Origin: Nannocystales bacterium
GTDB taxonomy: Bacteria; Myxococcota_A; Polyangia; Nannocystales; Nannocystaceae
DNA length: 24,163 nt
Reading direction: 5' to 3'
NCBI GenBank assembly: GCA_050633305.1
Contig: JBOEGF010000009.1
Coordinates: 6,149-30,311, forward strand
Shown: one piece after another, positions 1-17,404 of the stretch
Layout: the number at the start of each line of letters is the position of its first letter
Numbering within the stretch: the first letter of the stretch is position 1
The notes under the pieces: generated by a model
Told to the model about the DNA's origin: nothing
Databases searched by the model: none
What the model saw: the letters and a program-made list of their open reading frames with translations, nothing else
Translations under genes and position numbers: made by a program

Positions 1-130
1 CCGCAGGTACCCCTCCGGGCGAAACAAACCACGAACAGCCTACCTTGTGGCGAATGTGCTGTTGTTGGTCCAAGGCGGCGCAACGCCGCCCATCAGGCTA
101 ACAAACTCTGTCCCCGCCCCCTTCTCGAAA
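1..130 (-). ncRNA. Putative retron msr-msd ncRNA, Mx162-like, truncated by the window edge
   Basis: The minus strand reads tAGCctgatg-GGCGGCG-TTG-CGCCGCC-ttggaccaacaacagcacattcgccaCAAGGTAGGCTGTTCgtgg. The perfect 7-bp hairpin is at 74-90, the candidate branching G at 98 and the CAAGGTAGGCTGTTC block at 33-47. The order and identity of these motifs match my recollection of the Myxococcus xanthus Mx162 msr/msd. It lies directly downstream of the HEAT/SWIM/WGR operon. The 5' boundary is approximate, and the a1 repeat and RT gene are not in the window. Confidence 0.75.
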
Positions 131-209
131 CATGTTCCAGCAGGTCGAGTGAACAATCACCCGAGGCACTTGCAGAAGTATCAAATTTGTCCGGTGCGGT
201 CACGATCAT

Positions 210-2021
210 TCACATCGATTCCGACGCACTCGCATCAACAAATCCCTTGTCGCCCAAGGTGTCCAAGCGTGAGAAGTACTCGGTCTTCGCGCCATCGGCA
301 TCGGTGAAGAACAGCTTCTGCACCCGCATGCGTTCGGGGTGTTCCCCCCACCGCACCACCACACGTCGGTCGTCTAACGAAAGCCGGTAGGTCATCACAC
401 CGCCGCGGCGACGACGGGTCATGATCCGCGTCTCTGCGACGATGAGTTTTCGTCCCTGCGGGGTGTTTCGTGCCGCTTCTAGCTCTGTTTGCGCCCGGGC
501 GTGCGCCAGCCGCAACGCGATCATCGGCACCGTCGGCCCTTCTCGTAGACCCGCTCTCCGGAATTGCGGACTGGTGCAATCCGCGTCGACGGTGCGGCCT
601 TCTCGGTCGAGTGTGAAGGACGTCTTGTAGGTCCTGTGGGCGACCGTATCGTTGACCTCGCCTTCGATGCGCGTGCCTTCCTGCGGCAGGTTGTGTACGC
701 GGGTGATGTTCACAGCCCCGTCTTGCGCCAGAAGCCGGTGGGCCTCGCGCTCGTTGTCGTCGCGGTACCGCAACTCCTCGGTCGACGGGGGATCTTCCAT
801 GAGCGCGCGTCGCACCAAGGCGCCGCTGGCCATGTCCTTCAGGAGCATGCCCCGTTGCATCTCGTGGAGTACCGCCCGGCGCACGTCGCCCACGGGTCGG
901 TCCACCGAGGTCGCCAACGCAGCCAACGTCTGGGGACCTTCGTCAAGAACCTCCATCACGCGCCGAGAGAGCACTTCATCCACCCCGGTCGCGGACAACA
1001 GGTCGAACGTAGCGATCCCCGCCCAGCCGCTGTCGGTCCACCCCGAAAGCGCAAGCGTGAGCGTGGCGTCGCCCAAGTCGATCACGTAGTACGCAGGCAA
1101 GCCCGCACCCACGAGGTGCACGGTGACCGACTTCGCGTGTGGCAACAGAGGCGCCAGAGCACCCAGGCGCCGACGCCCCCAGGTTCGAACGACGGTGGGA
1201 GCGGAACCGCCGTAGGCATCCCCCGTGGCTTCGAGCACGGTTTCCCACGGCTCGAGCACCAGCCGTGGACGCTCGCCGGGCACCAACTCGTAGCGAAGTG
1301 CCCGCGGAGAGGTCTTCGCGCGGTGCAGCCGTAGCGACAGCAGCAGGTTGTAGAGGTCGATAGGGTTGAGGGAGAAGGAGGTGCTGGGCAGCGTGGATGC
1401 GGCTTGCACCTGACCGAAGGCCCTCAGCCAGCGGTGCGGAACGTGGAAGTCTCGCGACTCCCCGCCGTGGGCAGGCCGCAACTCCAGCGATGTGCTCCGG
1501 TACGACCGCACCCGCCCCACCGCGCGCTGCAAGGGCTCCGCGGTGAGATCGAGGTGCGACGTGCCCGGCGTGGACTGCTTCACATCGAGCGAGGCACCGG
1601 CCTTGAGGTGCAACCGAGCGTAGGCGGACTCGTCAGCCGAGAACACCTCCAGCGACAGCCCGGTATCGTCCACGTGCACGATGGGATCGAGTGGCGCTTC
1701 GTCGTGCTCGCTCTCGCCAAACTTCTGCGCGAGGTACGCCTTTTGGGCGTTCCACACCTCTTGGCTTACCCGCTTCCCCTTGGACAGCAGGTACGCCAGG
1801 TAGTCCTCGCGACTGGTCGCCTTGCGACGCAGGTCCGAGGTGAGGATGTCGTGCATGGTTCGAAGCGCATCCCGAACAACGCCTGGGCGCTGCAACGCGG
1901 CCTGCAACGACGCGCCGGACCGAAGCCCGTCGGTGGACAGCGTGAGGGTGAAACGATCTCCGTCCGGCCGGGTTTCGGGCTGCGACTCGTAACGAACGGC
2001 GGTGGCGGTGCTCTGCGACAT
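210..2021 (-). CDS. SWIM-zinc-finger-family protein (degenerate ligands) with a winged-helix-like segment and C-terminal WGR-like domain; putative retron-associated protein
   Basis: 603-aa ORF from ATG 2021 (or 604 aa from GTG 2024), overlapping the upstream stop (GTGATG) with AGGA upstream. It has a family-like block LDPIVHVDDTGLSLEVFSADESAYARL, a SWIM-position segment DCTSPQFRRAGLREGPTVPMIALR, and a C-terminal YRLSLDDRRVVVRWG...FFTDADGAKTEYFSRLDTLGDKGF that fits the WGR pattern. Confidence 0.8.
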   Translation of the reverse strand: MSQSTATAVRYESQPETRPDGDRFTLTLSTDGLRSGASLQAALQRPGVVRDALRTMHDILTSDLRRKATSREDYLAYLLSKGKRVSQEVWNAQKAYLAQKFGESEHDEAPLDPIVHVDDTGLSLEVFSADESAYARLHLKAGASLDVKQSTPGTSHLDLTAEPLQRAVGRVRSYRSTSLELRPAHGGESRDFHVPHRWLRAFGQVQAASTLPSTSFSLNPIDLYNLLLSLRLHRAKTSPRALRYELVPGERPRLVLEPWETVLEATGDAYGGSAPTVVRTWGRRRLGALAPLLPHAKSVTVHLVGAGLPAYYVIDLGDATLTLALSGWTDSGWAGIATFDLLSATGVDEVLSRRVMEVLDEGPQTLAALATSVDRPVGDVRRAVLHEMQRGMLLKDMASGALVRRALMEDPPSTEELRYRDDNEREAHRLLAQDGAVNITRVHNLPQEGTRIEGEVNDTVAHRTYKTSFTLDREGRTVDADCTSPQFRRAGLREGPTVPMIALRLAHARAQTELEAARNTPQGRKLIVAETRIMTRRRRGGVMTYRLSLDDRRVVVRWGEHPERMRVQKLFFTDADGAKTEYFSRLDTLGDKGFVDASASESM

Positions 2022-5000
2022 CACGCGTGTTCCTGGCGTTGGGTGGTGGTGGTGCGACGTTGCGCGCGTCGCAGCGCTCGGAAGATGGCTTTGCGGAGCG
2101 ACTCATCAGCGCCATCGCTGTCGAGCAAGCCTTGCAACGTCGAAACGGATTCGTTCCCGCCCAGGCGCCCCAATGCCGCAATCGCGGTGAGCCTTGCCGT
2201 GCCATCGCCTTCGGTGGCGAGCGAACGCAGCGCATCCGTACGCGAGGACTGTAGGGCCCGCGGCAACAACGTCGGCCGCGACGCATCCGAGGAAAGCGCG
2301 GCCTCGGCGTTCTTGTCGAGTGCCGCATGAGCCAGCGCCGCTGCGACCCGGCCGTCGGTGACCTCCGAGGACAGGGCGACAGCGCCCGCTTGCCCAGGGT
2401 CCATGGAGGCGATCGCACGCGCAGCCGCAACGCGAACCCGCGAGTCGTGGTGCCGCAACAAGCCGCGTACCACGGGAAGCCCAGCCGTCTCGCCCGCGGC
2501 TTCCAGCAGCCGAATGGCTTCGGCCAACACCGCAGGCGGAGCTTTGTCGTGCCCCAAGACCTCCTGAGCCACTGCGCCATCGGCCTTGCCGCGCCGCACT
2601 GCCCATAGACACGCGCGCCATGCTTCGGCCTCGGCCTCCCGGTGCGCGGCATCGGTGCCCACGGTCAGCGCATCCCACCGGGCTGCGCTCTTCTTGGCCG
2701 CCGCCGCCGCAGCCCCGGCGAGGTCTGCCGACTCCGCCGCACCTGCAAGCCACGCCGCGTCGGCGCGAACACCGGGAGCATCGTGCCCGAGGAGTTCTGC
2801 GATGGCTGCAGCGGGCAGCGCCCCACGTCGGACCAAGCCGCGACGCAAGCGAGCTCGGACCGGTGCGCTCTCGATGTGAGGCAGGCGTTCCAACAGGGAC
2901 GACGGGTCACCGTTGCGGGCCAAGAACCCGGCCGCAGGCTCGGCGACGTCGTTGTGCGGACTACGAATGCGAGCCATGTTTACCCGGGTGGTGTCCTCGG
3001 GAAACACCAACGCCAGGGCCTTGGACGCCACCGACCGCAGTCCGCGGTCATCATCGGACAGGGCTTCGGCCAGGACCGCCTCCGAGGAGGTGTTGCCCAG
3101 CTCGCCCAGCAACGTCGCTGCGTGACGTCGGACGGTGGCGTCTTCGAACGCATCGGCCACCGCCGCTTCGAGCAGGCCTCGGCTTCGCTCGTCGCCCGCC
3201 CATCGCAGTCCCGTCAGTGCCCGCGTCCGAACCTGGCTCTCGCCCTCGGCCGCCGCGGTCTCCACTGTTTTCCGGATCCTCGCTTGGGTGTCCGCGTCAT
3301 CGAATCGACCGAGCATTCGGCCCAGCGCCTCGATGGCAACAGGCGCCAATGCCTGGTCCTCATCGGACAGCTCGGCATCGGGGTCGAGCAACGCCTCGAT
3401 GTCCGGCAAGCATCGCGGGTCGGCGAGATGACCCAAGGCCAACAGCGCCCGCTCGCGCTCGGGTTGCTCTCCCGCGCCAAGCACCAAGAGCAGCGGCTGC
3501 AGCGCTTCGGGGCGCTGACGCTTGGCCATCCCCGCGGCGGCAGGCAACACAAGGTCTCGACGACCCCGGCGCAGCGCAGCGCCCAACGCGTCGAGTCCAG
3601 CGCCGTCGACGGCCTCGGCTCGGAACGCCACCGCTTCGGCGGCTGCGACCCGAACCGTCTCGTCACGGTCGTCGAGCAGTCGCGCCAAGACAGCTTCGGC
3701 CTTGGCATCGTCGACGTCGCGGCACGCTGCGACCGCCTGGGCCCGCATCTGCGGGTCGGCGTGGTGCGCTGACGCGTCGATGTAGCGCAGCGCCCGCGCA
3801 TCGTCGAAGCGTCGGCGAGTCCGACCGTCGGGAAGGGTCCGGGAAGGCTCGCTGCGGTGACGCGCCAAGCTGAGCAAGGCATCGAACGCCCGTGTTCCGG
3901 TCCCCACGTCGTCGGCCCGGACCATCCGCAGCAGCGGCGCTTCGCCGTCCGGATGTCCGACCTGTGCGATCGCCTGCACCACAGACGGAACATCCGCGGT
4001 CTGGTCGGGGTCGTCTTCCAATCGCGAGGCCAAGATGCGCGCGACCGCACCGGCCGTCTCTTCGACCTCCCGTGCCCGCACCAGCGTCACCAAGCCGTCG
4101 AGTGCCCGACGGACCACCCGCGATTCGTCGTGCCGCAAGAACCCTGCCAGCACATCGCCGGCTCGTACGTCACCACGCTTGGCCAGCGCACTCGCGGCCC
4201 GCTCGCGTAGGTCCTCGTGGTCGCTCTCCAGAGCTCGAGCCAACGCTTCGTCGACTCGAGCGTCCTGGGCATCGACCAGACGGGTGACCACCGAGAGCCG
4301 GACGTCCGCGAAGCGGCTGCCCAGCGCAACCAGCCACGGCTCCAAGCTCCCCGCCTCGAACAGCTGCTGGATCTTCTGGACCCCGTGACTGCGTACGTCC
4401 TTGGCGGCGGCGTTGACAGAGTCGAGTGCCAGCACCCGGGCGGAGTCGTCACCGTGCAATGCGCGAGCGACCAGCGTATCGACGGCCCCACGCCCCACAT
4501 CGGCGTAGCTTGCCTGCAACGCGAGCGACGCGGGAGTGGTGTCTCCCTCGCTGTACAGGGAGGACAGGGTGGTGCTGGCCGCCTTGCGCACCAGGTGATT
4601 CGGGTCGGACAGGGCCCGGCGCACCGCGGGCAACACCGCTGCACGCCCCACGTGGGGCGACTGGGCCAACGCACCGAGCCGTGCCAGCGCGTCGCGTCGT
4701 ACCCGGTGCGTCTCGTCCGCCGCCCCTGCAACCGGAGCTTGTCGCACCAGACCCACATAGGTCCCAAACACCACCTGGTCCAGGTCTTCGGTGCCGGACG
4801 GCGACGAGGGCACCGTTCGCGGGTTGGGTCCGCCCGCGTAACGGATCACTTCGAGCACTCGGCGGCTGAGGTCTTCAGGGCGTTTGCCTGTCGTCAGCGT
4901 GGCTGTCAAACGGCGAATCCAGCTGCGCTTGCGAGACTGCGGTGCTTCGCGTTCGGGCGCGGTCGCGGGCGCATCCGAGACGCCGCTGGGTTTGGGCCCC

Positions 5001-8000
5001 TGCAAGCGCTTGGCCTCCCGCCAGAACGCCTCGGGCTGCGGCCGCAGCGACAACACCCGCGCGGCCGCGTAACGCGTGGCCGGCTCATCGCTGGCCAGCA
5101 CCGAGATTAGGATCCCAAGCATTGCCCGGCGCTCGGCCTCGGGTGGCCACTTGGCGAGTTCAGACGCCCGGTCGGGCTTGCGTGGGCCGACCAACTCTTC
5201 GAGCAACGGACCGAGCGCACCGGGATCTTCGCTGCGCACCTCCAACACCCGGGCCGCCGCGAAGCGCAACTCGGGGCTGGAGGCTGCCAATGCAGCGGCG
5301 AGCAGGTCGGGTGCCAAGCCGGAGCGGGCCAGCGCCACATCACGCGCCACCACGATCGAGAACACCAGGTCCTGAATCTCGCGGTCGGTGTCTTCGAGTC
5401 CCTGCAGCACTCCGCGGAGGCCCTCGTGGCCCAGCGCAACGAAGCTGAGGATCGCGCCGAGACGGATCGGCTTGTGGTCGTGGGCCAAGGTCCCGGCGAG
5501 AACCGGTACAGCGCGCACATCCCCAAGCCGGGCCAAGCCTTCGGCCACCCAGCTGCGGACCGGTAGGTCGTCGTGGGAAAGCGCGGCCACCAGGGGGCGC
5601 TCGAGCCCGGGCTTGACCGCTCCCGCCAACCCGCGGCCACCCATCTCCCGCACGTGCCCGTCACCATCGTCGAGCAGCGTCACGTAGGCCGCCATCGAGG
5701 CAGCGTCGGCGACATCGGCCATCGCTGCAGACGCTCGGCGACGAATGTCGTCCGACGGCCGATTGATATCCCCGCTGGGCAACGCCAAGAGGGCAGCCAT
5801 CGGTGCGACCGCGTCCGTAATGCGGCGCTTTCCGTGCAGCTCGGCCGCACGAACCCGTAGCGTCCAGAATTTGCTGCTGTACGCGGTGGCGAACGCGTTT
5901 TGGTCCTTGGGGAACAAGGCATCGAGCGCTTCGATCGCGGCCTCGTGGACGGGCACCGACAGATCGTCGAGCAAGTCGGTGAGGTGTACGCGTAGCGCCT
6001 CGAGTCCCTCGCCCTTTGCATTTTTTGCGCCGCGACAGCCCGCAGCTCGTACCGCAGCGCGAGGCGATTGCGTCGCGGCGAGGTGCACCTGTGCTCGGGC
6101 TTTCCCCGCCTTCTTCCGGGCCTTGTTCTTCTTGCTGTCGGTCAGCGCCGCGTAGGCTGCCAGCCCCACAGACTCGTTGCCGTCGCCAACCATGGTCAGC
6201 AGCAGCGAAGTCGCCCAGTCGCCATCGGTGCGATCGAGCTCGGCGACCACCTGCTGGCGGGTGTCCGCATGTCGGGACGCCGAGGCACGCTCCAACATCG
6301 GCTGGGGCGTGTCGCTGTGCCATGCCCACAACGTCTTGTAAGCCGTGGCGCGCACCTTGCCGCTCTCATCATCGAGCGCGGCCGACAGCAACCCGTCCGC
6401 CGTGGCGTGGTTGGCGGGGGCAGCCTTGGGCCCATGTCCGACGATGATCGCCAGCGCCTTGGCGCGCATGTCGTCCTGACCGCTCTGCATCGCGACGGCA
6501 GCGACCTCGAGCGCGCCCACATCCCCACGGGGTTGCGCCAGCGCGGCAAGGGCATCGAATGCATCGGTGCGCACGCCAGGGTCGGAGTCGTCGAGCAGCC
6601 ACTGCAGCCGGGTGCGGATGCGGTCGTCGGCCGGCATCGCCTCACCTGCGAGATGCAGGGTGTCCACCACAGCACGCCGCAAGCCATGGTCAGCTTCGCG
6701 GCTGAGCTGCAACAGCGCCCCGGTTGCCCGCGGGTCCTGCAGCAGCGCCAGCCCACGGGCGCCCCGCAACGCAGTGTCGGGGTGGCGGCAGTTGAGCGCT
6801 GCAAACAACGATGCCCGGTCATCTTCGTTGGGCGTGCTGTCCTTGGCGGCCGCCAGGAGTAGTGGCCCCTGTTTGTGCGCGAGGTCGATGGCTGCGCGGA
6901 ACTCCCCATCGAGGCGGTACAAGGTGCGGCCGAGCACCACCCGTGCCGATGCGGCCACGATGAACGCCATCTGGCGGACGCGGGAGTCATCATCATCCAG
7001 AGCGGCCTCGACCAATGCCGCGCCCTCGGGGGTCTCGGACGCCCGCGTACGACCCAACCAGAACAGCCCGGACGCGCGAACGTCTTGGGGGCCCCGTGCC
7101 AACGCAACCCGAGCCGGCTCGACCGAACCTTTCGGTTCCAAGGCCACCAAGGCCTCGAACGCGGCGTGCCGCACCTTGGACTCTCGGTCACTCAAGCGTT
7201 CGGCAACCAAGCCGGGCACCAACGCGGACTGCTTGCGAAGCGGCGGAAGGGCGCCCAGCGCCCGAACCCGGAGGTCGGTATGTGAGCCGCTGACGGCCGC
7301 GCGCAGAGTGGAGATCGGATCGTCCTTGTCGATCCGCAGCAGCAAACCTTCGAAGGCCGTGCCGCGGACCTTCTTGTCGTCATCACCCAGGGCGCTGCGC
7401 AGAGCGGCACGAACCCGTCGATTGCCCGACCGCCCCAGCACGTCGGCGGCGAGGAGCCTCACCTCTGGCTTGTTGTCGCGTTCCAGTGCGCGCTCGATGA
7501 GCAACCGTGCGTCATCCTCGGGATGCTCTGCCAGGGCTTTGATCGCAGCGATACGAACCTTGGTGCCCGAGGCACCGAGCTGTTCGGTTCGCTCGGCCAG
7601 CTCCCCGTGCACCCGCTCGGTCTCGTCTGCGATGGTGCCTTGCTCATCGAGCGTGAGCGCAACCAAGGAACGCTTGGCATCGATGGCGACCAGCGAACCG
7701 CCGCGCTTGTCCTGCTTGGCGCGGGCGCTCGAGGGCAGCCACACCAGCCCCGTGAGCGCAGCGCTCCCAAGCTCGACCGTCTTGGGCTTGCGCCGGGTCT
7801 CCAGCGGCCACGACTTGACCACCCCGTCAGCACCCGCAGAGAACAAACGCCGAGGAATATCCCGACCGGCCTCGTCTCGCAGCACCGGGCCGAGCACCAG
7901 GCTCACCACCGCCCGCTCGTGGGCGGCATCTTTGGAGCGGTCCTCTTCATCAGCCGCACCGTCGAGGTAGCTGATCCGCAGCGAGCCGTCGCCGCACCCC

Positions 8001-8626
8001 GCCACCACCCGACCGTCGTCGGTCACGACCAGGGCCCGGACACCACCTTCGCCCGTGGGCATCTCCCGCACCGGTGCATTCTCCAGGTCGTCTAACTCGA
8101 CCACTCGCACGACGCCATCGTCCCCGCCGGTCACCACGCGGGCGCGCACGGGGTCGAAGCCCACGGTGCGGAGAGGCCGGGGGCTGAGCCCACGCTGACC
8201 GATCCGATCGAGTCGCGGCTTTCCATCCTGGACCACCAACCGATAGGCGCCCACCCGGCCGCTCTCGGTGACCACCGCCAGCGACGTCCCTGCGGCGTCG
8301 CTGGCCATCCCCAGCACACCACCACTGGGACCGTCGTGGGACCCCAACGCAGCGGGCTCGGCCGCTTCCGCATCCACCAACCGTAGGGACCCATCGGTCC
8401 CGCCCACGACCAGCAGGTCGTTGGAAAGAAACACCATCGCCCCAACGGCCGTCGGGATGGAAAGCGATGCAGCATGGCTGCGTTTGCCCGTGGCGAACAG
8501 ATGAATCGACGAGCTTTCCACGTCGGCATCCCGCGCACCTGCGATGGCAAACCGACGAGCCGAGCCCGCGACGGCGCGGAGCTGCTCGAGGAACGGGGCG
8601 AACTTTTTCTTCGCGTTGCTGCTCAC
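2021..8626 (-). CDS. Giant N-terminal WD40 beta-propeller + HEAT/PBS-lyase repeat protein (2201 aa)
   Basis: 6.6-kb ORF with a GTG start, GGAGG RBS and GTGA overlap with the upstream gene. The first ~340 aa have WD40-like blades (VGGTDGSLRLVD, TGGDDGVVRVVE, AGCGDGSLRISY, SAGADGVVKSW). The rest has many HEAT-like units (ALGDDDKKVRGTAFEGL, LSDRESKVRHAAFEAL, LLDDRDETVRVAAAEAV). Confidence 0.92.
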   Translation of the reverse strand: MSSNAKKKFAPFLEQLRAVAGSARRFAIAGARDADVESSSIHLFATGKRSHAASLSIPTAVGAMVFLSNDLLVVGGTDGSLRLVDAEAAEPAALGSHDGPSGGVLGMASDAAGTSLAVVTESGRVGAYRLVVQDGKPRLDRIGQRGLSPRPLRTVGFDPVRARVVTGGDDGVVRVVELDDLENAPVREMPTGEGGVRALVVTDDGRVVAGCGDGSLRISYLDGAADEEDRSKDAAHERAVVSLVLGPVLRDEAGRDIPRRLFSAGADGVVKSWPLETRRKPKTVELGSAALTGLVWLPSSARAKQDKRGGSLVAIDAKRSLVALTLDEQGTIADETERVHGELAERTEQLGASGTKVRIAAIKALAEHPEDDARLLIERALERDNKPEVRLLAADVLGRSGNRRVRAALRSALGDDDKKVRGTAFEGLLLRIDKDDPISTLRAAVSGSHTDLRVRALGALPPLRKQSALVPGLVAERLSDRESKVRHAAFEALVALEPKGSVEPARVALARGPQDVRASGLFWLGRTRASETPEGAALVEAALDDDDSRVRQMAFIVAASARVVLGRTLYRLDGEFRAAIDLAHKQGPLLLAAAKDSTPNEDDRASLFAALNCRHPDTALRGARGLALLQDPRATGALLQLSREADHGLRRAVVDTLHLAGEAMPADDRIRTRLQWLLDDSDPGVRTDAFDALAALAQPRGDVGALEVAAVAMQSGQDDMRAKALAIIVGHGPKAAPANHATADGLLSAALDDESGKVRATAYKTLWAWHSDTPQPMLERASASRHADTRQQVVAELDRTDGDWATSLLLTMVGDGNESVGLAAYAALTDSKKNKARKKAGKARAQVHLAATQSPRAAVRAAGCRGAKNAKGEGLEALRVHLTDLLDDLSVPVHEAAIEALDALFPKDQNAFATAYSSKFWTLRVRAAELHGKRRITDAVAPMAALLALPSGDINRPSDDIRRRASAAMADVADAASMAAYVTLLDDGDGHVREMGGRGLAGAVKPGLERPLVAALSHDDLPVRSWVAEGLARLGDVRAVPVLAGTLAHDHKPIRLGAILSFVALGHEGLRGVLQGLEDTDREIQDLVFSIVVARDVALARSGLAPDLLAAALAASSPELRFAAARVLEVRSEDPGALGPLLEELVGPRKPDRASELAKWPPEAERRAMLGILISVLASDEPATRYAAARVLSLRPQPEAFWREAKRLQGPKPSGVSDAPATAPEREAPQSRKRSWIRRLTATLTTGKRPEDLSRRVLEVIRYAGGPNPRTVPSSPSGTEDLDQVVFGTYVGLVRQAPVAGAADETHRVRRDALARLGALAQSPHVGRAAVLPAVRRALSDPNHLVRKAASTTLSSLYSEGDTTPASLALQASYADVGRGAVDTLVARALHGDDSARVLALDSVNAAAKDVRSHGVQKIQQLFEAGSLEPWLVALGSRFADVRLSVVTRLVDAQDARVDEALARALESDHEDLRERAASALAKRGDVRAGDVLAGFLRHDESRVVRRALDGLVTLVRAREVEETAGAVARILASRLEDDPDQTADVPSVVQAIAQVGHPDGEAPLLRMVRADDVGTGTRAFDALLSLARHRSEPSRTLPDGRTRRRFDDARALRYIDASAHHADPQMRAQAVAACRDVDDAKAEAVLARLLDDRDETVRVAAAEAVAFRAEAVDGAGLDALGAALRRGRRDLVLPAAAGMAKRQRPEALQPLLLVLGAGEQPERERALLALGHLADPRCLPDIEALLDPDAELSDEDQALAPVAIEALGRMLGRFDDADTQARIRKTVETAAAEGESQVRTRALTGLRWAGDERSRGLLEAAVADAFEDATVRRHAATLLGELGNTSSEAVLAEALSDDDRGLRSVASKALALVFPEDTTRVNMARIRSPHNDVAEPAAGFLARNGDPSSLLERLPHIESAPVRARLRRGLVRRGALPAAAIAELLGHDAPGVRADAAWLAGAAESADLAGAAAAAAKKSAARWDALTVGTDAAHREAEAEAWRACLWAVRRGKADGAVAQEVLGHDKAPPAVLAEAIRLLEAAGETAGLPVVRGLLRHHDSRVRVAAARAIASMDPGQAGAVALSSEVTDGRVAAALAHAALDKNAEAALSSDASRPTLLPRALQSSRTDALRSLATEGDGTARLTAIAALGRLGGNESVSTLQGLLDSDGADESLRKAIFRALRRAQRRTTTTQRQEHA

Positions 8627-11409
8627 GCGCGACCTCCCTCGACCGACTGTGCAAACCGTCTACGACGCGGCTCCCGGACCTCGATGCTCTGGCTGGCCAA
8701 CGCGACGCCCAGCTGCGGATGCGCCGCACGTAGGGCCACCAGCGCAGACAGGCACGCATCCCGTTCTCCGCGCGCGCTCGAATGAGCGAACGCCTCCAAG
8801 ATGGGCAGCACCGCTGCGGCAAAGCCCGCGTCTTCGAGTGCGAAGTCCCGCAAGACGCCCACGAGGCGTTGCTTGGCCACCGAGGCGGGCAACGAACGAT
8901 CAGGCGCGACACCGTTGGTGGGCGCTCGCCTCTCCATCCGACCCGGTGGAAGCCCGAACAACACCGTGCGCAAGAACTCGCGCAACGCTTCCGAGGTGTC
9001 GAACGCCTGCTGGGCCGTGGGCGCGGCTGTCCGTGTGGCAACGGGGCTCAGCCCGCGCGGCCGATGCTTCTCCCACAGCAGACGCACCGCGAACAACCGG
9101 ACCTCCCGGTCGGGGCTCTCCATCAGCCACGCCAAGCGGTCGGCACCCCCGAGCCGGTCGTAGTGGCGGCGCACCAACGTGAGCGCAACCTCGCGGGTGG
9201 ACTTGTAAGGGCTCTCAGCCAGCGAGAAGACGGCGTCGACCGAAAGCCAGGCGACGGGCAGCATGCGCTCGGGCGGAAGCTCATCGTCGCCAAGCAACAG
9301 CAGCCCCGACCCGGCAGCGTTACGGGTCTCGGAGAATGGTGACTCGGCCAACCGATACAGCAGCGTTGCGTCGTCCCAACGGCGGATCTCGGCATCGATC
9401 AACTCGGCCGCAAACCGCCGCACATCGGGTCGGGGGTCGTCGGTCAGCGGAACCACGGTGGCCTGCGCGTAGTCGGCGGGGATCAGCCGTGGCTCGATGC
9501 CCAGGTCGCGCGCTTCGGATTGCGTCGGGCCAATGTCGGGGTGATGCAGACGCAGGTACGTGGCCGCGAACTCCCGCACCGCCTCGGGTTGGGCCTCGCC
9601 CAACAGTGCCCAGCAGCCCCCGCCGCCGAGTTGGTCGGGCGTGAAGTGCTCCAACAGGTGGCGTCGCGCAAAGGTTCGCAGCGCGGCATCGGCGTGGCGC
9701 AGCAGTCCCAACAGCCACGGGACGCCCAGCTTGGCGGGGCCCACCCACGTGGGCTCGCCCAGCACCGCCAGCGCGGTGGAGCGCAGCTTGGGCTTGGCGA
9801 TGAGCCCTTGGAACCAGGCCACATCAACGTCGTCGCCCTTGAGCTTTCCACGCGACAGCCACGTGGAGACTTCGCTCGTGAACTTGCGATCGAGCAGCGT
9901 GTCTTGGATCCAGCCCACCCCGATCTCGGACGCCTTGCGCTCGCCGATCCGGGACAATACCCGGCGCTCGCGATAGTTCAGCCGGGTGGAGTTCGATGCC
10001 AAGCGGTCGTCGACGAGCAACGCCTGCAAGTGAGACACCGGCGGCTTGCGCTTGGCCTCGGAGAACCATCCGTCGACAAAGCGCTCGCCGTCACGACCCT
10101 CCACCATCAGGGTGACAAACTCCGCCTCCCCGAGTGCATCGACCGTGAATCCGTCACGGATCGCCTTGCTCGCCATCTGCGCGGTGGCCCGCGCCAACAC
10201 CAAACGCACCAACATCGGCAACCCGATGTCTTTGGGGGATATCTTTTCCAGCCGCTCGAGGGCGAACTTTGCTCCGTCGCTGTGGCCCAGCTCGGCCAGC
10301 TGCACCAAGCGCTCTACCGGGACCTGCGCCGACTGCCCGCGGACATACTCGAGCGCCAGGGTGCGTGCCGTTGAACTGGGGCTGCCGAGGAACGCCAGCA
10401 TCAGCGGTTCGAGGCCCAAGCCCGCCAGCTTCGACGGATGGAACTTGGGATTGGCCTGCAGCAGTCGAGCGACGAAGTCGTGCACCGACGGCAGCGACTT
10501 CTTCCCCAAACGCAGCAGCCACGCGGGCTCGACATCACGCAGTGCGTCCGCAAAGGCCTTCTCCAAACCGGTGATGGCAAATGCGCATACCTCGTCGGCC
10601 TCGGCGTGCTCCAACAGCCGCAGCAACGGCTCCTTGCGGGCTTTCCAGGCGTCGGGAAATGCCCAGTCCTTCATTTTTTCGGAGGGACCCGACGAACCAC
10701 TGGTGCCCCACATCATCTCGTGGGACCAGATGTGCGAAGCCACCCAGGTCCCCCAGAAGTTGGTGCCCGGCTCGTAGTGGCGCAGCACCTCCACCGCAAA
10801 CTCGGGATAAGCCTCGGGCACCGCGGTTCCCAGCTGACGGAGAAACCGCCACGCACGACGCCGCATGTAGATCAGCGTGCCGCGCCCGACCTCACCGCTG
10901 GCCATCTTGGATTGAGCAAAGGTGTCCAGCCTCCACGCGAGCAGCCCCAACATCGGCGCATCATGCTGCGCCTCGGCCAGCTTGAAGATACGCTTGAACC
11001 CCCGCCAGAACCCCCAGCCGATCCTCGCACGCCGCAGTATGTCCCTTAGGGACGCAAGCCCCGGTTCGTCCCCCGCCTCGTACAGCTCGACCATCAGCTG
11101 GCCCAGCTTCAACCGCGGCGGAGGATGAGCGGCCGCCTCGAGGGCCGACCATGCGGCGTTGCGGGCAGCTTGCTGCTCCTCAGCGGACTTGTGAGCCAAC
11201 TGGCCGGGATTCACCGCCTGGCGCAGCCGCCGAAGCGTCCACGCACCGTCGGGCAAAGCCACCACGGTCTCTGCGGGGTCGGCTTCTTCCCCGCGATCTT
11301 CAGGGGGGTCGCCTGAATCCATGTAGCGGACCACCAGGTCTGCCAGCTGTGGGTCGCGCGCTTTCGCGGCCGCGACAATGTCTGCCCAAACAACCTCCCG
11401 AACGCGCAC
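8623..11409 (-). CDS. HEAT/ARM-like alpha-solenoid protein (928 aa), first gene of the operon
   Basis: Long ORF whose stop overlaps the next start. It has HEAT-like units (TDDPRPDVRRFAAELI, MESPDREVRLFAVRLL, AESPYKSTREVALTLV) and an aromatic/basic N-terminal block (WRGFKRIFKLAE, YMRRRAWRFLRQLG). GTG 11409 is the first in-frame start after a stop. Confidence 0.88.
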   Translation of the reverse strand: MRVREVVWADIVAAAKARDPQLADLVVRYMDSGDPPEDRGEEADPAETVVALPDGAWTLRRLRQAVNPGQLAHKSAEEQQAARNAAWSALEAAAHPPPRLKLGQLMVELYEAGDEPGLASLRDILRRARIGWGFWRGFKRIFKLAEAQHDAPMLGLLAWRLDTFAQSKMASGEVGRGTLIYMRRRAWRFLRQLGTAVPEAYPEFAVEVLRHYEPGTNFWGTWVASHIWSHEMMWGTSGSSGPSEKMKDWAFPDAWKARKEPLLRLLEHAEADEVCAFAITGLEKAFADALRDVEPAWLLRLGKKSLPSVHDFVARLLQANPKFHPSKLAGLGLEPLMLAFLGSPSSTARTLALEYVRGQSAQVPVERLVQLAELGHSDGAKFALERLEKISPKDIGLPMLVRLVLARATAQMASKAIRDGFTVDALGEAEFVTLMVEGRDGERFVDGWFSEAKRKPPVSHLQALLVDDRLASNSTRLNYRERRVLSRIGERKASEIGVGWIQDTLLDRKFTSEVSTWLSRGKLKGDDVDVAWFQGLIAKPKLRSTALAVLGEPTWVGPAKLGVPWLLGLLRHADAALRTFARRHLLEHFTPDQLGGGGCWALLGEAQPEAVREFAATYLRLHHPDIGPTQSEARDLGIEPRLIPADYAQATVVPLTDDPRPDVRRFAAELIDAEIRRWDDATLLYRLAESPFSETRNAAGSGLLLLGDDELPPERMLPVAWLSVDAVFSLAESPYKSTREVALTLVRRHYDRLGGADRLAWLMESPDREVRLFAVRLLWEKHRPRGLSPVATRTAAPTAQQAFDTSEALREFLRTVLFGLPPGRMERRAPTNGVAPDRSLPASVAKQRLVGVLRDFALEDAGFAAAVLPILEAFAHSSARGERDACLSALVALRAAHPQLGVALASQSIEVREPRRRRFAQSVEGGRA

Positions 11410-11443: not shown

Positions 11444-11999
11444 CGATGCATCTGGCCTCAAACCCCGACGCCCGCTTACACCATTTGCCCTATTCACCTC
11501 GCACGCGGACCGGGGCACTTCCTGAGGTATTGCCGGTTCGATCGATCGCGCCTACCAAGTCGCCTTCCGCTCCCACGCTTCACAGATCTCGCCCGCGCAA
11601 CCAACGCGTCCAAGTCTGTACATCACCGAGGCCGATCCTTGAACCACCGAGAAGCCTCCTGCCCACGAGCCGATCTTGTTCACAGCGGGCGCGGTGCTCA
11701 GCGGAGCCAGGCTGCGCTCGGCAGAGTCCCCCCTCTAGAGGCCGGTTTCCGGCTCTACCAGACTCGTCTCCATCTCGTTCGAGATTTGAGCGTCAGAAGC
11801 CGAAGGTTCGGCGGAGAAGACTCGATGTCAAAGGGCGAAGGCCCGCCGTCGAGCGCCCGAGATCCACGTACGACCACGCGGCCGATCGATAGAGTTTGCG
11901 TCTTCGTAGACCGACCGATTCGTTCTCTCGCATTGACGGACACCGGGCCATGGCCAGTTGCTCATGGCTCGACGGCGCACGCACAGATCGAGAACCGGC

Positions 12000-13085
12000 A
12001 TGAAACACCATCGAACCAAATCCCATCCTGCTCGCCGCATCAGCTCGGTGCTCCTGTTTGCGCTTGCCGCGCCCGCGATTGGAATCGGCCCGCTTGCGTG
12101 CGACGACGGCCAGGACCCGCACGACATGCAGATGCGCTCTTTGGATCCGGTGATGGAGCGAGTGCCTGTGTCCGACCCCGACCTCGATCCGATCGATGCC
12201 AGCGAGCTGGTGGGACTGACGATTGAAGACCTGCACGCGATGTCGTTCAATTACGACACCTACGTCATGAGCGAGCGGCCGACGTCCATCACGTATACCG
12301 CCCCTCAGATCGCGAGCGTGCGAAATGGAGGCTGGCCCCTCCACGCTCTGCAATGGAAGGACTATCTCACCAGCACTCCTCAGACGAGCACCTTCGACAT
12401 TCCCGCAGCCACCGCAGCCATCTCGGCCAGCCAGGACTTCCACAGCGTCGAAGTCGACAGTGCGCCGGCGCTCAATGCTCTCGAGGCGGGTGTTGCCTTC
12501 ACGGGCCCGGACCCGGCAGGTGATTGGATGTACATCAACATCTCGAGCCCCGCGGTGGCGTTCGCCTATGCCGCCCTCGTCATGCATCACTGGGGTAGCC
12601 CGGTCTATGTCGCTGGGTGGCTTCAGCACCCCGCGGGCAGCCCGAACCGGGTCTCCAGGATTGCCTTGCAGGAGCTCACGTTCCAGCTCCCGCCGAGCGT
12701 CGTGGATCTCTTCGATTCGTGCGGCTTGCTGTCTACCGATCCCCCGAGCGTTGCCCTCGCTGCCCCACCCATCTGCGCCAATGCCATGGTGCTTCACCAC
12801 GACGAGGTCACGACCTGGCAGGAGAGTCAGTGGGGGACGGGGGCTTACACGCCTTTTCTCCCGAACTACTTCCTCGACCCCGTGGTGCTCGCTTCCGCGA
12901 TGACCACGGTCGGTCCGGTGTTGCAAGGCAACGTGGTCTTCGATCCGCCCGACGAAGTGACGGAGGAAGAGCTCGAAGGCGTCCTGGTGTTGGCCGAGGC
13001 GCTCTCCGAACAGCTTCTCATCGAAGGCGAGGATGGCAGGTTGGTGCTCTTGAAGGAACTGGCCTTCGAATCCATGGAAGGCTGA
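12000..13085 (+). CDS. Hypothetical lipoprotein (361 aa)
   Basis: From ATG 12000: basic N-terminus, hydrophobic stretch and lipobox-like PLAC (MKHHRTKSHPARRISSVLLFALAAPAIGIGPLAC). The composition is globular and acidic, with no recognisable domain. Confidence 0.75.
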   Translation: MKHHRTKSHPARRISSVLLFALAAPAIGIGPLACDDGQDPHDMQMRSLDPVMERVPVSDPDLDPIDASELVGLTIEDLHAMSFNYDTYVMSERPTSITYTAPQIASVRNGGWPLHALQWKDYLTSTPQTSTFDIPAATAAISASQDFHSVEVDSAPALNALEAGVAFTGPDPAGDWMYINISSPAVAFAYAALVMHHWGSPVYVAGWLQHPAGSPNRVSRIALQELTFQLPPSVVDLFDSCGLLSTDPPSVALAAPPICANAMVLHHDEVTTWQESQWGTGAYTPFLPNYFLDPVVLASAMTTVGPVLQGNVVFDPPDEVTEEELEGVLVLAEALSEQLLIEGEDGRLVLLKELAFESMEG

Positions 13086-13099
13086 CCGTTGTCGCGGCA

Positions 13100-13115
13100 G
13101 GCCCGAAACCGGGCC
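13100..13115 (+). terminator. Possible terminator-like hairpin without a U-tract
   Basis: GGCCCG-AAAC-CGGGCC, 14 nt after the stop at 13085. Confidence 0.3.
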
Positions 13116-13186
13116 CGACTGACTCGCGTCCCCTCCACCGGCGTATTGTCCGTATGCAGGTAGGACATCGTTCGGAGTGTTTGAGG

Positions 13187-13262
13187 GAAAGGAAGTGGGA
13201 AAGAGCCGATCCGGAGGAGTACGGCTTCACGCCGTCGAGGGCGGTTATGGCGTAGCGGGCCA
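13187..13262 (+). repeat. Dispersed 76-bp repeat, copy 1
   Basis: Ungapped match to 22286-22361; 64/76 identical by manual count (53/59 in the 5' part). Confidence 0.85.
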
Positions 13263-13366
13263 TTGGCCGGGTGTGACAGACGACGCTGGCAAGCGCACCC
13301 GCACCGACTCTGACCCCCTCGCGAAGCATGGTCGCGTGACCGAGCGAGCCGCGGTATCGTCGAGGT

Positions 13367-14098
13367 GTGGCGCGCATCGGGCCCGCGATCGTAGCGACCT
13401 TACTCAGCGCACTCGTCTGGGTGTTCACCCAGGTGATCGTGCACGAACAGGCGCGGGCACACGACATGGAAGGGATTTGCGGCTCGCTCACGACGGCGGT
13501 GATGGTCGCGGAGTCGGCCCCCGGAGCGTTCTCCGAGCTCGAGCGTCCGTTGTCGAACGCGCGCACGACCGCGTACCTGTTGCCCGGCGGCGATGCGCGA
13601 CAGGTCCCCAGCTGGGCACTTGGCCGTGATGTTCTGGCCCTGCTGCCAGGGGGGTCGACGCGGACACAGCCTCTGTACGGTACGACGAGATGGGATCGTC
13701 CAGTGCAGGAGACTGGGAACAGCTGGGTCGCCGAGTTCCCCCATGCCCTCACCACGCCCAGCACCGACAGCTGGGCGACACAGCGGTTGGCATCGGGCGA
13801 CGTCGTCCTCGTGACGCGATACGAAGGTTCCCATGGGTACGTTGCGGATTGGCGGCTCTCCCTGGGCCTTGCAGGAGTGGGAGGACTCCTGGTGGGCCTC
13901 GCGTGGTCGCGCAAGCCCACCGCCGTGGCACTCGGCCTCGCCGTGTTGTGCCTGGAGTTCGCGGTGCAGTGGACGGCTCTGCCCGACGCAGCGGTCAAAG
14001 AGCTCGGCGATGAAGTTCGCGCGAAACACCTCGCGCAAATGCGCGAGCTCAGCGGAGACCCCGAGCGCTGGGCCGTCCGCCGATGCGGCAAACGTTGA
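13367..14098 (+). CDS. Hypothetical membrane protein (243 aa)
   Basis: N-terminal hydrophobic helix (IGPAIVATLLSALVWVFTQVIV) and two C-terminal hydrophobic segments (LSLGLAGVGGLLVGLAW, AVALGLAVLCLEFAV). TATCGT lies 6 nt before the GTG. Confidence 0.65.
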   Translation: MARIGPAIVATLLSALVWVFTQVIVHEQARAHDMEGICGSLTTAVMVAESAPGAFSELERPLSNARTTAYLLPGGDARQVPSWALGRDVLALLPGGSTRTQPLYGTTRWDRPVQETGNSWVAEFPHALTTPSTDSWATQRLASGDVVLVTRYEGSHGYVADWRLSLGLAGVGGLLVGLAWSRKPTAVALGLAVLCLEFAVQWTALPDAAVKELGDEVRAKHLAQMRELSGDPERWAVRRCGKR

Positions 14099-14322
14099 GT
14101 CTGGCGCTCCTCGCTTTCGCGGCCAAATTCGGTCTCTGAGTTGCGGCCCGGCCCGACTTCCGGAGCAGCACCCGTCCGGCCGAAATGCGATGACGCCGAC
14201 ACAGCTCTCCACCTGCACTCTCCCCCTGCGGCCAACTTCTCGATCGTTCCATACGCGAGGTCGGGCGTGGAGCCGAGAGGTGGGCCCCCTACGAAGCCGC
14301 GCCCACGCACAGTCTATGGCGC

Positions 14323-14490
14323 TCAGGACGTTGTGGAGAGCAGCAGGAGTTGTGCGGACGCAGGGGCGCGTCTTGGTGGCGGAGCACCGTGAAGCTCGGC
14401 GGCGATGTCCTCGGGCGTGGTGACAAACGAGTGACCTGCATGGCCCCGCGACAGCGGGCGCACACGGAAATATCGATGCGAAGACCTCCC
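14323..14490 (-). mobile_element. Decayed 3' end of an IS91-like transposase gene, copy 1
   Basis: Reading across frameshifts gives EVF/IDISVCARCRGAMQV/FVTTPEDIAAELHGAPPPRRAPASAQLLLL. This resembles the VFxxDxxxCxxCGGxM...(I/L)..L C-terminus of IS91-family transposases. There is no start codon or catalytic region. Confidence 0.6.
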
Positions 14491-14662
14491 CTCACACGGC
14501 TGAGCCTGCCCGACCCACAGCGAGAGGAGAGGGGAGCGAGCGAACCCGGCCGAGGAGTTTTTTTGGGCGTTCGCGGTTGTCGGGAACCAGCGAGGGGGTC
14601 GCGGCAGCAAGGGAAGCACCGACGCCATGGGCGGTGCAACGCCGAGGCTGAGACGCACAGAA

Positions 14663-15196
14663 ATGACGAACATGAAGAACAGACTGAAGAAGAAACTCCT
14701 CGCTGGCCTGACCCTCGCGCTGTGGCTGCCGACCGCCTGCGGTGATGTGGAACCCGTCACTGATACCTCGGACGCACGGAAAGCCGAGCTCTATGGCGAA
14801 GCGATCGACGCAGTGGTCCACGATGACCACGAGGTGGTGTCAATGGTCGCGCTGGAACGCGCTGCCCAAGAACTCGACGTGCCCCACTTGAGGGAGCTGC
14901 AGGTTCAAATCATCGAGCGCGTGGGTTGGGATCCCACGCCCAAGCAGGTCGAGGAGGCTTTGCAGGCCGTCACGGCCACGTACTCCGAATCGCAGCTTCA
15001 CGCCCTGCGAGAAGAGATGCAGGCGATGAGCGAGCTCGCGATCGAGATGGTGGAGTCTGGCGAGTACGCCGATGATGACCTCGACTCTCCGCGCCTGGCC
15101 GTGCTCTGCGGCGTCATCGCGCTGGGTTTCATCGCCGGCGTCGGCTGGTGTTACCTCTTCGCCAACGGCATCACCTGCTACGCCGACCCGCTGTAG
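14663..15196 (+). CDS. Hypothetical lipoprotein with a hydrophobic Cys-containing C-terminal tail (177 aa)
   Basis: MTNMKNRLKKKLLAGLTLALWLPTAC lipoprotein signal (alternative ATG at 14672), an acidic helical middle, and C-terminal LAVLCGVIALGFIAGVGWCYLFANGITCYADPL. Confidence 0.8.
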   Translation: MTNMKNRLKKKLLAGLTLALWLPTACGDVEPVTDTSDARKAELYGEAIDAVVHDDHEVVSMVALERAAQELDVPHLRELQVQIIERVGWDPTPKQVEEALQAVTATYSESQLHALREEMQAMSELAIEMVESGEYADDDLDSPRLAVLCGVIALGFIAGVGWCYLFANGITCYADPL

Positions 15197-15238
15197 GCCG
15201 CTTGCTGTCGGGTCGAACTCCTCGTCCCGCTTGCGGCG

Positions 15239-15266
15239 CAGGGCCCCGAACGCGTTCGGGGCCCTG
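15239..15266. repeat. Perfect 28-bp palindrome between convergent genes (terminator-like or REP-like)
   Basis: CAGGGCCCCGAACGCGTTCGGGGCCCTG equals its own reverse complement. Confidence 0.8.
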
Positions 15267-15544
15267 GAAGGTCTCAGCCCAGTCTTGCCGCCACGTGTCC
15301 TCCGGGGACGCCACGGCGATCCTCCGTTGGATATCCGGGGACCGGGGGTTGGTTGAAATGATGCGGAAGAACCGGCGGTGGGGCGGGGTCGTCGAGGTGC
15401 GGAGGATGGGATACGAGGACCCGCTCGCGACTGTACACCGCTAGCTGGCCGAACACCGGCCCTACAACCCCGGGCCTCAGGCGTTTTCGAGCACGACAGC
15501 GGTGCCCTGGCCGCCCCCAATGCACGCTTGGTGGGGCCGCGTCC

Positions 15545-17047
15545 TCAGAACACGTGAACTTCGCGACCGGGCAAGACGAGCATCTCGCCGGACTCGGGGT
15601 CCAGGAGCGTGGCCTGAGTCTCGTCGCTGAAGAACGCACACGTACCCGCGGCGTTCACACCGAGGCCGTAGGTTCCGTCCGGGAGCGACGCATAGTCTCC
15701 CCCGTCGTAGGAGACCTGCAGTTGCTGGCCCATCGCCGTCCCCGCGGCGGGTTCGAAGAGCTGGGGCGGGCAGAAACTCTGCCCCTCCGGGACCGTCTGC
15801 ACAACGGTCACAAGGCCGACCGTGTGAACATCCATCATGTCGATGCCTGCGACTGGGCTTCCGACGACGGTCCATGTTCCGCGATCGACGTCGAGCCGCT
15901 GTGGCTGGGCTGCCGCGGCGTCGCGAAGCGCCATCACGACCGCGCCATCCGCCTCGATTGCGGGGACGCGTCCGTAGCACTCCATTGCCTCGAAACCGGG
16001 GGGAGGTGTGATCTCAATTGTTTCCGCGGCCTGCTCGGCGAGGGACACGCGAACCCAGACAGAGTCCTCAGGCTGCTCGGCCTGGGCCTCGAGGAGAATC
16101 CAGTCCGGGCTGGCCGAAACCCACGTCAGCGCGTTGGGCCCAGGGTTGAACGCCGCAACGTCGACTGCGGTCGTCGTGCCATCGGGATCCGCCAATACGA
16201 TCTGACCGTCGGCTTGGTAGACGAGTCGCCCTTGGTAGAGGAGCGTTCGGGACCCCAAAGGACTGGGGCTGATCTGTGCCACGGCGCCGGTGGATAGGGT
16301 GGTCCAGGCCAGCGGGTTCGGGGACGACTCCGTTGGGAGCCGACCGGGAATCACATCGGAGGGCACACTCCCGTGCCGTGGCCGGAACCCAGGGTACACG
16401 GCGGGAGGCTCTCCGGGGATCAGGTAGAGCCCCTCGTAGCCCGTATCGGTCGTCTGTCGGTAGCCCAACAAGTCACCCTGCGGGCCCACCCCGGTGAGCT
16501 CGAATGTCGCGCTCGTCAGCGACTCTTCGTGCGCCACCAAGCCCTCGATGTCGAACGTGCGGAGCGTGTAGCCGCTGTCGACGGACCCGCCATTGAAGTG
16601 GCTCCAATCGGAAACGACTGCCGCCCAGGACCCGTCCGTGGAGCCGCGGGCCTGCCTGCCGAGGTTGGATTCCGCGGGTGCCCCGACGGCGGGTGCTTCG
16701 ATGGCGACCAGGGATCCATCTCCGCGAATGAGGTGGCTGTCTACACCATCGAAGACCATTGCGACAAAGGCGTCGGCGCTGCGGCCACAAAGGCCTGCAG
16801 GCTCCGGCTCCGTCGTGTCGGACGTTCCGCCTTCGCTGTCACCGTCGCCCGTCGTCTCGGTCCCCGTGGCGTCGCTGACCATCCCTGTGGTTTGCGGTCC
16901 CGATGTGCCGGGCGCGCTGGTCTCAGTCAATGACACGTCTGCCCCCTCTGCTTCGCCCTGCGCGGTTGTCCCGGCTTCGGCGTCGAGACCGACGGCTGGA
17001 CCGCAGGCAACCAGGAGGAGCGGAAAGCCGTACGGAGTCCAGCGCAT
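15545..17047 (-). CDS. Hypothetical lipoprotein with Thr/Gly/Ser linker and beta-rich domain (500 aa)
   Basis: MRWTPYGFPLLLVAC lipobox, a low-complexity T/G/S/E/D linker, then a beta-strand-rich, possibly propeller-like region with a few Cys residues. Confidence 0.8.
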   Translation of the reverse strand: MRWTPYGFPLLLVACGPAVGLDAEAGTTAQGEAEGADVSLTETSAPGTSGPQTTGMVSDATGTETTGDGDSEGGTSDTTEPEPAGLCGRSADAFVAMVFDGVDSHLIRGDGSLVAIEAPAVGAPAESNLGRQARGSTDGSWAAVVSDWSHFNGGSVDSGYTLRTFDIEGLVAHEESLTSATFELTGVGPQGDLLGYRQTTDTGYEGLYLIPGEPPAVYPGFRPRHGSVPSDVIPGRLPTESSPNPLAWTTLSTGAVAQISPSPLGSRTLLYQGRLVYQADGQIVLADPDGTTTAVDVAAFNPGPNALTWVSASPDWILLEAQAEQPEDSVWVRVSLAEQAAETIEITPPPGFEAMECYGRVPAIEADGAVVMALRDAAAAQPQRLDVDRGTWTVVGSPVAGIDMMDVHTVGLVTVVQTVPEGQSFCPPQLFEPAAGTAMGQQLQVSYDGGDYASLPDGTYGLGVNAAGTCAFFSDETQATLLDPESGEMLVLPGREVHVF

Positions 17048-17404
17048 CCCTGAAGGGTTCGACCGAGCCGGTCAGAAGTCCATCCGTGATTGGTGCACGC
17101 CAGGATGAAGCCTGTCTTCACGTCGGAGGAGGTCGCGACCACGGACTCCGTCTTTGCCGCTTTCCCACCACGAAGAAGGGTGGGAAAGCGGCTTCGGGGA
17201 CGCGGCTTCGTCGGCGCGCAGCTCGGAGTCGGAGAGCTCCCGCTCGCGCGCAGTTCACGGGCCGCAGCGCACCACGATGAGAGCGCCGTTGCATCTGCTG
17301 TCTTCGATGTGGAGCGTGCTGCCTCGCGCGGCGCAAACATCCGCTCTCGCAAGCTTCGGGCTGCGGCAAACACTCCTGGTCCACGATGCCATCGAGGCAG
17401 TCGG

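Follow-up and report, generated by a model that had tools for sequence, protein, structure and literature searches.

A 24,163 nt stretch of the genome of a Nannocystales bacterium (assembly GCA_050633305.1, contig JBOEGF010000009.1, positions 6,149 to 30,311; contig C9 6149-30311 of genome G000 in our numbering) was analysed and is referred to here as the window. The host genome is 11.0 Mb with a GC content of 65.9%. The window carries the greater part of a retron, which is almost certainly of type XIII in its two-HEAT variant and complete, with five genes. Its 604-aa SWIM-type partner protein is predicted to have the two-domain subunit fold of PCNA-like clamps. We give a probability of roughly 45% to a guard mechanism in which reverse transcriptase (RT) and multicopy single-stranded DNA (msDNA), scaffolded by helical solenoids, hold this DNA-gripping clamp-fold protein as an effector until its release. 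Loci and genomes used for comparison are given as L and G numbers. Statements on published work refer to the accessible parts of the sources cited.

Retron locus and classification

The operon in the window is comprised of three minus-strand open reading frames (ORFs) of 928, 2201 and 604 aa (3,733 aa in total) with a 4-nt GTGA overlap at each junction (Table 1). Their third-position GC content (GC3) was 0.79-0.81, as expected here for real genes. The original prediction, made from the window sequence alone, had described three such coupled genes and had placed an RT gene just left of the window. Both were found. In the region left of position 1 a 438-aa RT was identified in which the NAxxH, YADD and VTG motifs are all present. 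The next-best PADLOC model for this RT scored 1.5e-92. The original prediction had overlooked a fifth gene, which encodes a 148-aa WGR protein and is coupled to the RT stop via an ATGA overlap. Each of the five genes occurs once in the genome, as do the RNA motifs.

Table 1. Features of the retron locus (window positions unless contig C9 is stated)
Feature	Position	Strand	Evidence or remark
928-aa all-helical HEAT-like solenoid, first operon gene	8623-11409	-	PADLOC HEAT-ARM_XIII PDLC02921, 3e-238
2201-aa protein, N-terminal WD40-type propeller and long HEAT repeats	2021-8626	-	PADLOC HEAT-ARM_XIII PDLC02919, E = 0
604-aa core partner (604 from GTG, 603 from next ATG)	210-2024	-	PADLOC SWIM_XIII, 5e-140
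Domains of the 604-aa protein	residues ~40-330 (clamp, predicted), 347-413 (winged helix), ~436-510 (zinc-less SWIM), 531-604 (WGR-like, C-terminal)		
msr 5' arm a1 and TAGC	97-126 (a1 126-101, TAGC 100-97)	-	sequence; pairs with a2 left of window
Predicted branching G	98	-	TAGC context
Conserved GC-rich msr hairpin	~91-74	-	sequence; kept in aligned relatives
Left arm of long msd hairpin	49-1	-	right msd arm and a2 lie left of window
438-aa type XIII RT	C9 4703-6019	- (same as operon)	PADLOC RT_XIII, 8e-149
148-aa WGR gene	C9 4260-4706	same as RT	Pfam WGR, 2e-17

The type XIII assignment had also been proposed in the original prediction and was confirmed by matches to the PADLOC models RT_XIII and SWIM_XIII and to two HEAT-ARM_XIII models. 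Type XIII is defined by an RT of clade 10 together with a winged-helix/SWIM protein, and two HEAT/ARM genes are described at some of its loci (Mestre 2020, PMC7736814). Its members include Retron-Mxa1 (Mx162), Mxa2 (Mx65), Sau1 (Sa163) and Nex2 (Ne144). A 2026 survey lists 143 type XIII candidates, termed an expansion of a known type (PMC13712802). The locus thus belongs to an already classified kind and is a fresh copy of a known retron type, not a new system. The first msDNA was found in 1984, in myxobacteria (Simon 2019, PMC6868368), and published abstracts describe many types of retron as toxin-antitoxin systems directed against phage.

The window shares with type XIII the RT class, the contiguous msr-msd and the cluster-114-type winged-helix/SWIM protein. 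The two upstream HEAT/ARM genes recall clusters 259_1 and 1688_1 of Mestre 2020, a likeness drawn by description. The window differs in that the SWIM zinc ligands are lost, the published DEDE motif appears incomplete and an extra 148-aa WGR gene follows the RT. In addition, the WGR-like domain forms the C-terminal part of the SWIM protein, whereas in type XIII it lies on the HEAT protein.

Neither a mechanism for type XIII partner proteins nor phage-defence work on Mxa1 or Nex2 was found in the open-access literature. The same literature gave no result for retrons with SWIM, HEAT or Myxococcus since 2021, or for SWIM, WGR, HEAT, RT and clamp. No clamp fold was found in the accessible type XIII account of Mestre 2020 (PMC7736814), the word clamp appears only among the references of PMC8632793, and in the accessible part of the Millman preprint Mx162 is named in the methods only.

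Predicted clamp fold of the 604-aa protein

The 604-aa protein was modelled with AlphaFold2 on an alignment of 141 sequences. The model had a predicted local distance difference test score (pLDDT) of 92.3 and a predicted template modelling score (pTM) of 0.92. Residues 40-330 matched PCNA in Foldseek (E 5.6e-8), and the clamp region aligned to PCNA with Z 16.2 and a root-mean-square deviation (rmsd) of 2.7 over 212 residues at 9% identity. The best matches after PCNA were 9-1-1 (Z ~14) and then beta clamps (Z ~12). Viral structure matches were mostly clamps too, and the polymerase accessory clamp UL44 also matched (Z 11.9). The model thus predicts a two-domain PCNA-like clamp subunit fold.

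This fold is shared with the PCNA, 9-1-1 and beta clamps that were compared (3aix_A, 6j0j_A, 3ggr_A and 8dt6_A), whereas sequence identity to them was 9-14% and no clamp-family match was found in Pfam or NCBIfam at E 0.01. Further differences are an insertion of helices at residues ~65-110 and three additional domains at the C-terminal end. Sliding clamps are loaded closed rings, and the likeness of the 604-aa protein to them is one of predicted subunit fold only. The best structure matches listed for the model included no nuclease fold, RNase H-like or other. A sequence search of the Protein Data Bank with the family profile gave weak matches only, nearly all to winged helices (best E 0.003). 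The ESM Atlas gave mainly unnamed clusters and one lead, at 0.81, to the 'SWIM zinc finger family'. No relatives were found among viral contigs with a single protein as query, the three pattern matches all being unrelated. A complex prediction of residues 3-520 with RT residues 8-434 scored 0.02, which is evidence neither way.

Four arginines were near-invariant among homologues: R173 (130/136), R284 (135/140), R286 (130/140) and R51 (116/133). In the predicted model all four fall within the clamp helices or next to them. The equivalent helices line the DNA channel in PCNA. Acidic residues were also invariant or nearly so, namely E126 (135/135), D131 (131/135) and D113 (126/135), and a catalytic pocket is therefore possible. 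A putative nuclease motif, DEDE, has been proposed in the SWIM protein (Mestre 2020, PMC7736814), with the form Dx7[D]x4Ex30-32Dx37E. In the 604-aa protein D113, E126 and D159 are present, the second D is T121 and the last E aligns to S190. The absence of the second D is allowed in the published motif. Among homologues two motif positions vary, with D159 in 94/136 and E190 in 103/136, and in the predicted model the motif residues sit on strands of the clamp fold.

The SWIM zinc motif CxCx12CxH was not found. C-T-S ... T-V-P stands in place of CxC ... CxH, so that one of four ligands is kept. The motif was kept in none of 120 close relatives (best 120 of 1,137) and in 85 of 94 distant sequences with a readable segment. 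The distant set was made up of 102 representatives of 440-680 aa and the query, 48 of the 150 listed being outside that length. By these alignments the zinc ligands have been lost in the sub-clade, and by profile the protein is still a family member. Residues 531-604 matched residues 1-75 of 2ra8_A (Z 11.2, rmsd 1.8, 74 aligned) and contain an RWG motif. We take 2ra8 to be a WGR entry, and the WGR-like label of the domain leans on this and on the motif.

The original name of the gene, SWIM-WGR, stands as to profile family and C-terminal domain, but three of the four zinc ligands implied by it are missing. The original prediction had also reported no toxin or nuclease motif. None was identified here either, but the published putative DEDE motif and the predicted clamp fold had been missed.

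HEAT solenoid proteins

The AlphaFold2 model of the 928-aa protein (pLDDT 92.3) consisted of nothing but helices. Its Foldseek matches were generic HEAT solenoids, with no small enzyme fold among the best ones listed. The 2201-aa protein matched the Pfam families HEAT_2 (2e-78) and WD40 (2e-6), and propeller chains matched as well, supporting an architecture of propeller and HEAT repeats. The HEAT and WD40-HEAT labels originally given to these two genes were thus appropriate. Family scans of the five locus proteins predicted no ATPase family.

msr-msd RNA

The RNA begins 84 nt past the stop of the 604-aa gene. Between this stop and the RT the order is a1, TAGC, msr hairpin, long msd hairpin and a2. 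The structured msr-like region originally noted within ~110 nt of the last stop is, judged by its sequence and that of its relatives, a real msr-msd. Its msr motifs presumably resemble those of Mx162. The window contains one half of the RNA. Folded alone this half did no better than shuffles (z -0.9), a result that is uninformative because the arms with which it pairs are outside the window, to the left of position 1. Once genome context is added, both the a1/a2 stem and the long msd hairpin are formed. The assembly has N over part of the RNA gene, which hides its full length. The whole RNA of the closest relative, L002 (82% identical), had a z of -7.95. In eight RNAs from relatives, compensatory changes on both sides were seen at 35 of the 55 consensus pairs; these copies are kin and no probability is attached. 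No match at gathering score was found when the window was compared to Rfam.

The msd span was 152-153 nt in three of four relatives measured, the fourth giving no value. This is near the 162 nt of Mx162 (Simon 2019, PMC6868368), where the TAGC context of the priming G is also described. At the tip of the msd hairpin a sequence motif is conserved across relatives, while the stem below varies freely (alignment A2 columns ~160-188; L044-L063). This motif is a candidate protein-recognition element.

Linkage to RTs and distribution

Linkage was examined in a sample of 151 genomes of the phylum and in metagenome loci (best 80 of 481). SWIM_XIII was found in 17 of the 151 genomes, at 23 loci, and 19 of these loci had RT_XIII within ~3 kb on the same strand. 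Of the other four, two are cut off by the end of the contig and the remaining two are members of an RT-free family. An RT was present at 52 of the 80 metagenome loci. Where at least 1.5 kb of flank was available it lay downstream of the SWIM-type gene in 48 of 49. The RNA motif was found between the SWIM gene and the RT at 37 of the 52 loci, and the spacers at the other 15 were ~300 nt or more. A WGR homologue followed the RT at 27 of the 52. Co-occurrence of the genes with RTs, a check suggested in the original prediction, therefore held for close homologues, but distant homologues exist without an RT.

In an RT tree of 34 sequences the two-HEAT loci grouped in a single clade (100/100), with the single-HEAT loci outside it. 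Matches were found in 10 of 40 related genomes, and the close form in only one of six congeners. Named homologues of the window proteins were chiefly from Myxococcota, for example Paraliomyxa, Enhygromyxa, Haliangium and Plesiocystis, and were also found in Competibacteraceae and a Pirellulaceae genome.

The layout of related loci varied. Loci L075 and L079-L083 are reordered as SWIM gene, RNA, RT, WGR and then the 928-aa homologue, and in L081 and L082 1.2-2.5 kb separates the SWIM gene from the RT. Several genomes carry both single-HEAT and two-HEAT retrons, and at L008:5950-18581 (with L009) one of each is arranged tail to tail so that the two RTs meet. A ~480-aa gene combining WGR and beta-propeller is found at single-HEAT loci (L006:9853-11298, L034:689-2140), which means that the two architectures share WGR, propeller and helical parts but fuse them in different ways. 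Four genomes of one genus (G006, G018, G030 and G053; L042, L043) had RT_XIII-like matches and no SWIM_XIII match. Two RTs of this genus were placed in the tree and fell outside both main clades. At L141:7353-11617 a retron-type HEAT and SWIM pair has no RT in 10 kb downstream and is followed by a duplicated inverted repeat. L027 and L037 (G159) are two near-identical, heavily frameshifted operon copies on different contigs, probably an assembly error.

Detached and multiplied RNA genes

At 12 sister-clade loci in 11 genomes, which are kin and not independent, the RT starts a few bases past the SWIM stop (one gap was ~97 nt). The RT nearly abuts the SWIM stop, leaving no room for the RNA. That these are RNA-less retrons was considered and rejected, as a genome-wide motif search found the RNA elsewhere. 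The same RNA family was present in all 11 genomes in one to three copies, and in 10 of the 11 only on other contigs. At least one detached copy was folded for each genome, with 25 shuffles each. The z scores were -5.5 to -15.5 (-3.6 for a contig-edge fragment) and the msr hairpin was kept. The RNA of this clade would thus be used in trans. No structured copy was found in five genomes with a single-HEAT retron only, two one-mismatch motif matches there being dropped as unstructured (z -0.2 and -1.0). The motif was absent from six genomes without a SWIM match and was not found in G107, one further two-HEAT genome. No match was obtained with a reversed control pattern.

Two to four msr-msd copies were present at single loci (L026:1410-3935, L135:1162-3517, L088, L106 and L137). 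At L026 two copies lie downstream of the RT and have different msd stems with the same conserved base and loop motifs. A precedent for detached, multiplied msr-msd genes is Retron-Nex1 (Ne160), which has repeated msr-msd copies and no nearby RT (Simon 2019, PMC6868368). In contrast, the retron of the window is contiguous and single-copy. A search of the open-access literature for orphan or in-trans msr-msd turned up only Simon 2019 and Mestre 2020 (PMC7736814).

RT-free relatives

The distant SWIM homologues are homologous along their full length (E 3e-47 to the family profile) and are coupled to long DUF6493/DUF7824/DUF7825 partner genes. Such pairs, annotated as 'SWIM zinc finger family protein' and DUF6493/DUF7824/DUF7825, were found in Streptomyces, Asticcacaulis, Diaphorobacter and Chondrinema plasmids. 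They resemble the window in the full-length SWIM homology and the coupled long partner gene. They differ from it in having no annotated RT and a partner unlike the 928-aa protein by profile, DUF6493 giving no match to the 928-aa profile. No RT was annotated within 8 kb of the pair in four plasmid records (of 16 matched; PLSDB gene tables are incomplete). DUF6493 was not found in the open-access literature. The existence of RT-free pairs shows that this protein module serves some purpose even in the absence of msDNA. The retron would have been added onto an older two-gene module of a clamp-SWIM protein and a helical-repeat protein.

Neighbouring genes

The right half of the window encodes a GNAT acetyltransferase (17806-18495, plus strand) and secreted or lipoprotein-like ORFs at ~11937-13085 (+), 14504-15196 (+), 15545-17047 (-), 19058-21715 (-) and 23084-23914 (+). 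All five except 14504-15196 were scanned against Pfam, with no match. There was no sign of a link between the retron and the right-half ORFs (11937-23914). In the closest relative, the gene whose end lies upstream of the operon (L002:1-470) presumably encodes a type I-G/I-U Cas8. Septu (PtuA, PtuB) lies directly behind the RT at L073:13528-15590, and SoFic was found at L103:13616-14827.

Proposed mechanism and significance

In the proposed guard mechanism the RT would copy the RNA into branched msDNA of ~150-160 nt with a long duplex stem. The solenoids and the propeller would scaffold RT-msDNA together with the 604-aa protein. One complex of the accessory proteins with RT-msDNA, as first suggested in the original prediction, is inferred here as well. 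The clamp-like half of the 604-aa protein would grip duplex DNA via the conserved arginines, and the msDNA stem would fill this grip and keep the protein idle. A phage protein that disturbs the msDNA or the RT, or the appearance of DNA ends with the WGR domains as sensors, would act as the trigger. The released clamp-fold protein would then go onto DNA and stop growth or replication with no classical toxin domain needed. This mechanism is proposed because of the clamp fold, the conserved basic residues, the near-obligate RT linkage and the patchy spread, the last of which (10/40 related genomes) fits a mobile defence role. The RT-free pairs and the anti-phage role of many other retrons also count in its favour.

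Several points weigh against it. A shared fold alone shows no function, and both a clamp ring and DNA binding are hypothetical for this protein. In none of the four partner proteins was a toxic or catalytic domain recognised (the 2201-aa protein being judged by sequence only). The codon use is host-like and the locus single-copy. PADLOC gave no matches for 10 other window ORFs, some of which are probably not real genes. A clear defence gene, Septu or SoFic, was present in 2 of 20 related downstream flanks, counted on one side with no control and leaving out kinase, WYL, sigma-54-type activator and cyclase matches. A moderate correlation with host 16S, and the suggestion that some retrons are domesticated, are found in Mestre 2020 (PMC7736814).

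In an alternative which we consider unlikely, though the least so of those weighed, the locus encodes a domesticated, 9-1-1-like complex for surveillance of DNA ends or DNA damage and not a phage defence. WGR would sense breaks, the clamp would mark them, the solenoids would recruit partners and the msDNA would be a buffer or signal. The WGR domains of PARPs bind DNA breaks, and two WGR domains are present in the locus. The match of 9-1-1 subunits to the 604-aa model, the few defence neighbours and the host-like GC3 agree with such a role, as does the vertical inheritance noted by Mestre 2020 (PMC7736814) and Simon 2019 (PMC6868368). Against it, no match was obtained in 30 of the 40 related genomes searched or in 134 of the 151 from the phylum, and gene order and RNA position vary freely.

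Less probable again is that the 604-aa protein is a metal-dependent nuclease, a toxin held by the retron. The proposal of Mestre 2020 (PMC7736814) and the conservation of E126, D131 and D113 point this way, but the DEDE residues lie on clamp-fold strands, two motif positions are T121 and S190, and the positions of D159 and E190 are variable. We regard it as very improbable that the RT uses the clamp-fold protein as an aid to processivity or folding on the long GC-rich hairpin template, in the manner of the polymerase accessory clamps of herpesviruses. Such viral clamps do match the model, and the RT stays coupled to the SWIM gene at the 12 loci where the RNA has moved away. However, homologues exist without an RT, one genus has RT_XIII-like matches without SWIM_XIII in four genomes, and 3,100 aa of solenoid would be left unexplained. 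A chance association of retron and operon, to which the RT-free distant SWIM homologues might point, is extremely improbable, as it is contradicted by the linkage of 48/49 and 19/23, by RT clades that match architecture and by published co-evolution (Mestre 2020, PMC7736814).

To the known type the present analysis adds the predicted clamp fold, the lost zinc ligands, the RT-free SWIM and DUF6493 pairs and the detached RNA of the sister clade. Type XIII is the family in which msDNA was discovered. A broader account, which we advance as doubtful, is that type XIII retrons control a bacterial clamp-fold protein, unrelated to DnaN in sequence, which joins giant HEAT solenoids in a machine that encircles or grips DNA and came from a widespread and so far undescribed SWIM and DUF6493 system. 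The msDNA stem would serve as a decoy substrate, and in the sister clade the msDNA gene would act in trans, often as several copies with different stems. The retron outputs known to us are nucleases, NADases and membrane toxins, and a clamp-fold effector is unlike any of these. If the guard mechanism is true, with such an effector held by msDNA, it would be a sort of retron output new to us. The predicted clamp shape of the partner gives a concrete handle on the purpose of msDNA. Along with the conserved residues, the relatives that lack an RT and the RNA genes that have become detached, it makes the function of type XIII retrons experimentally addressable.

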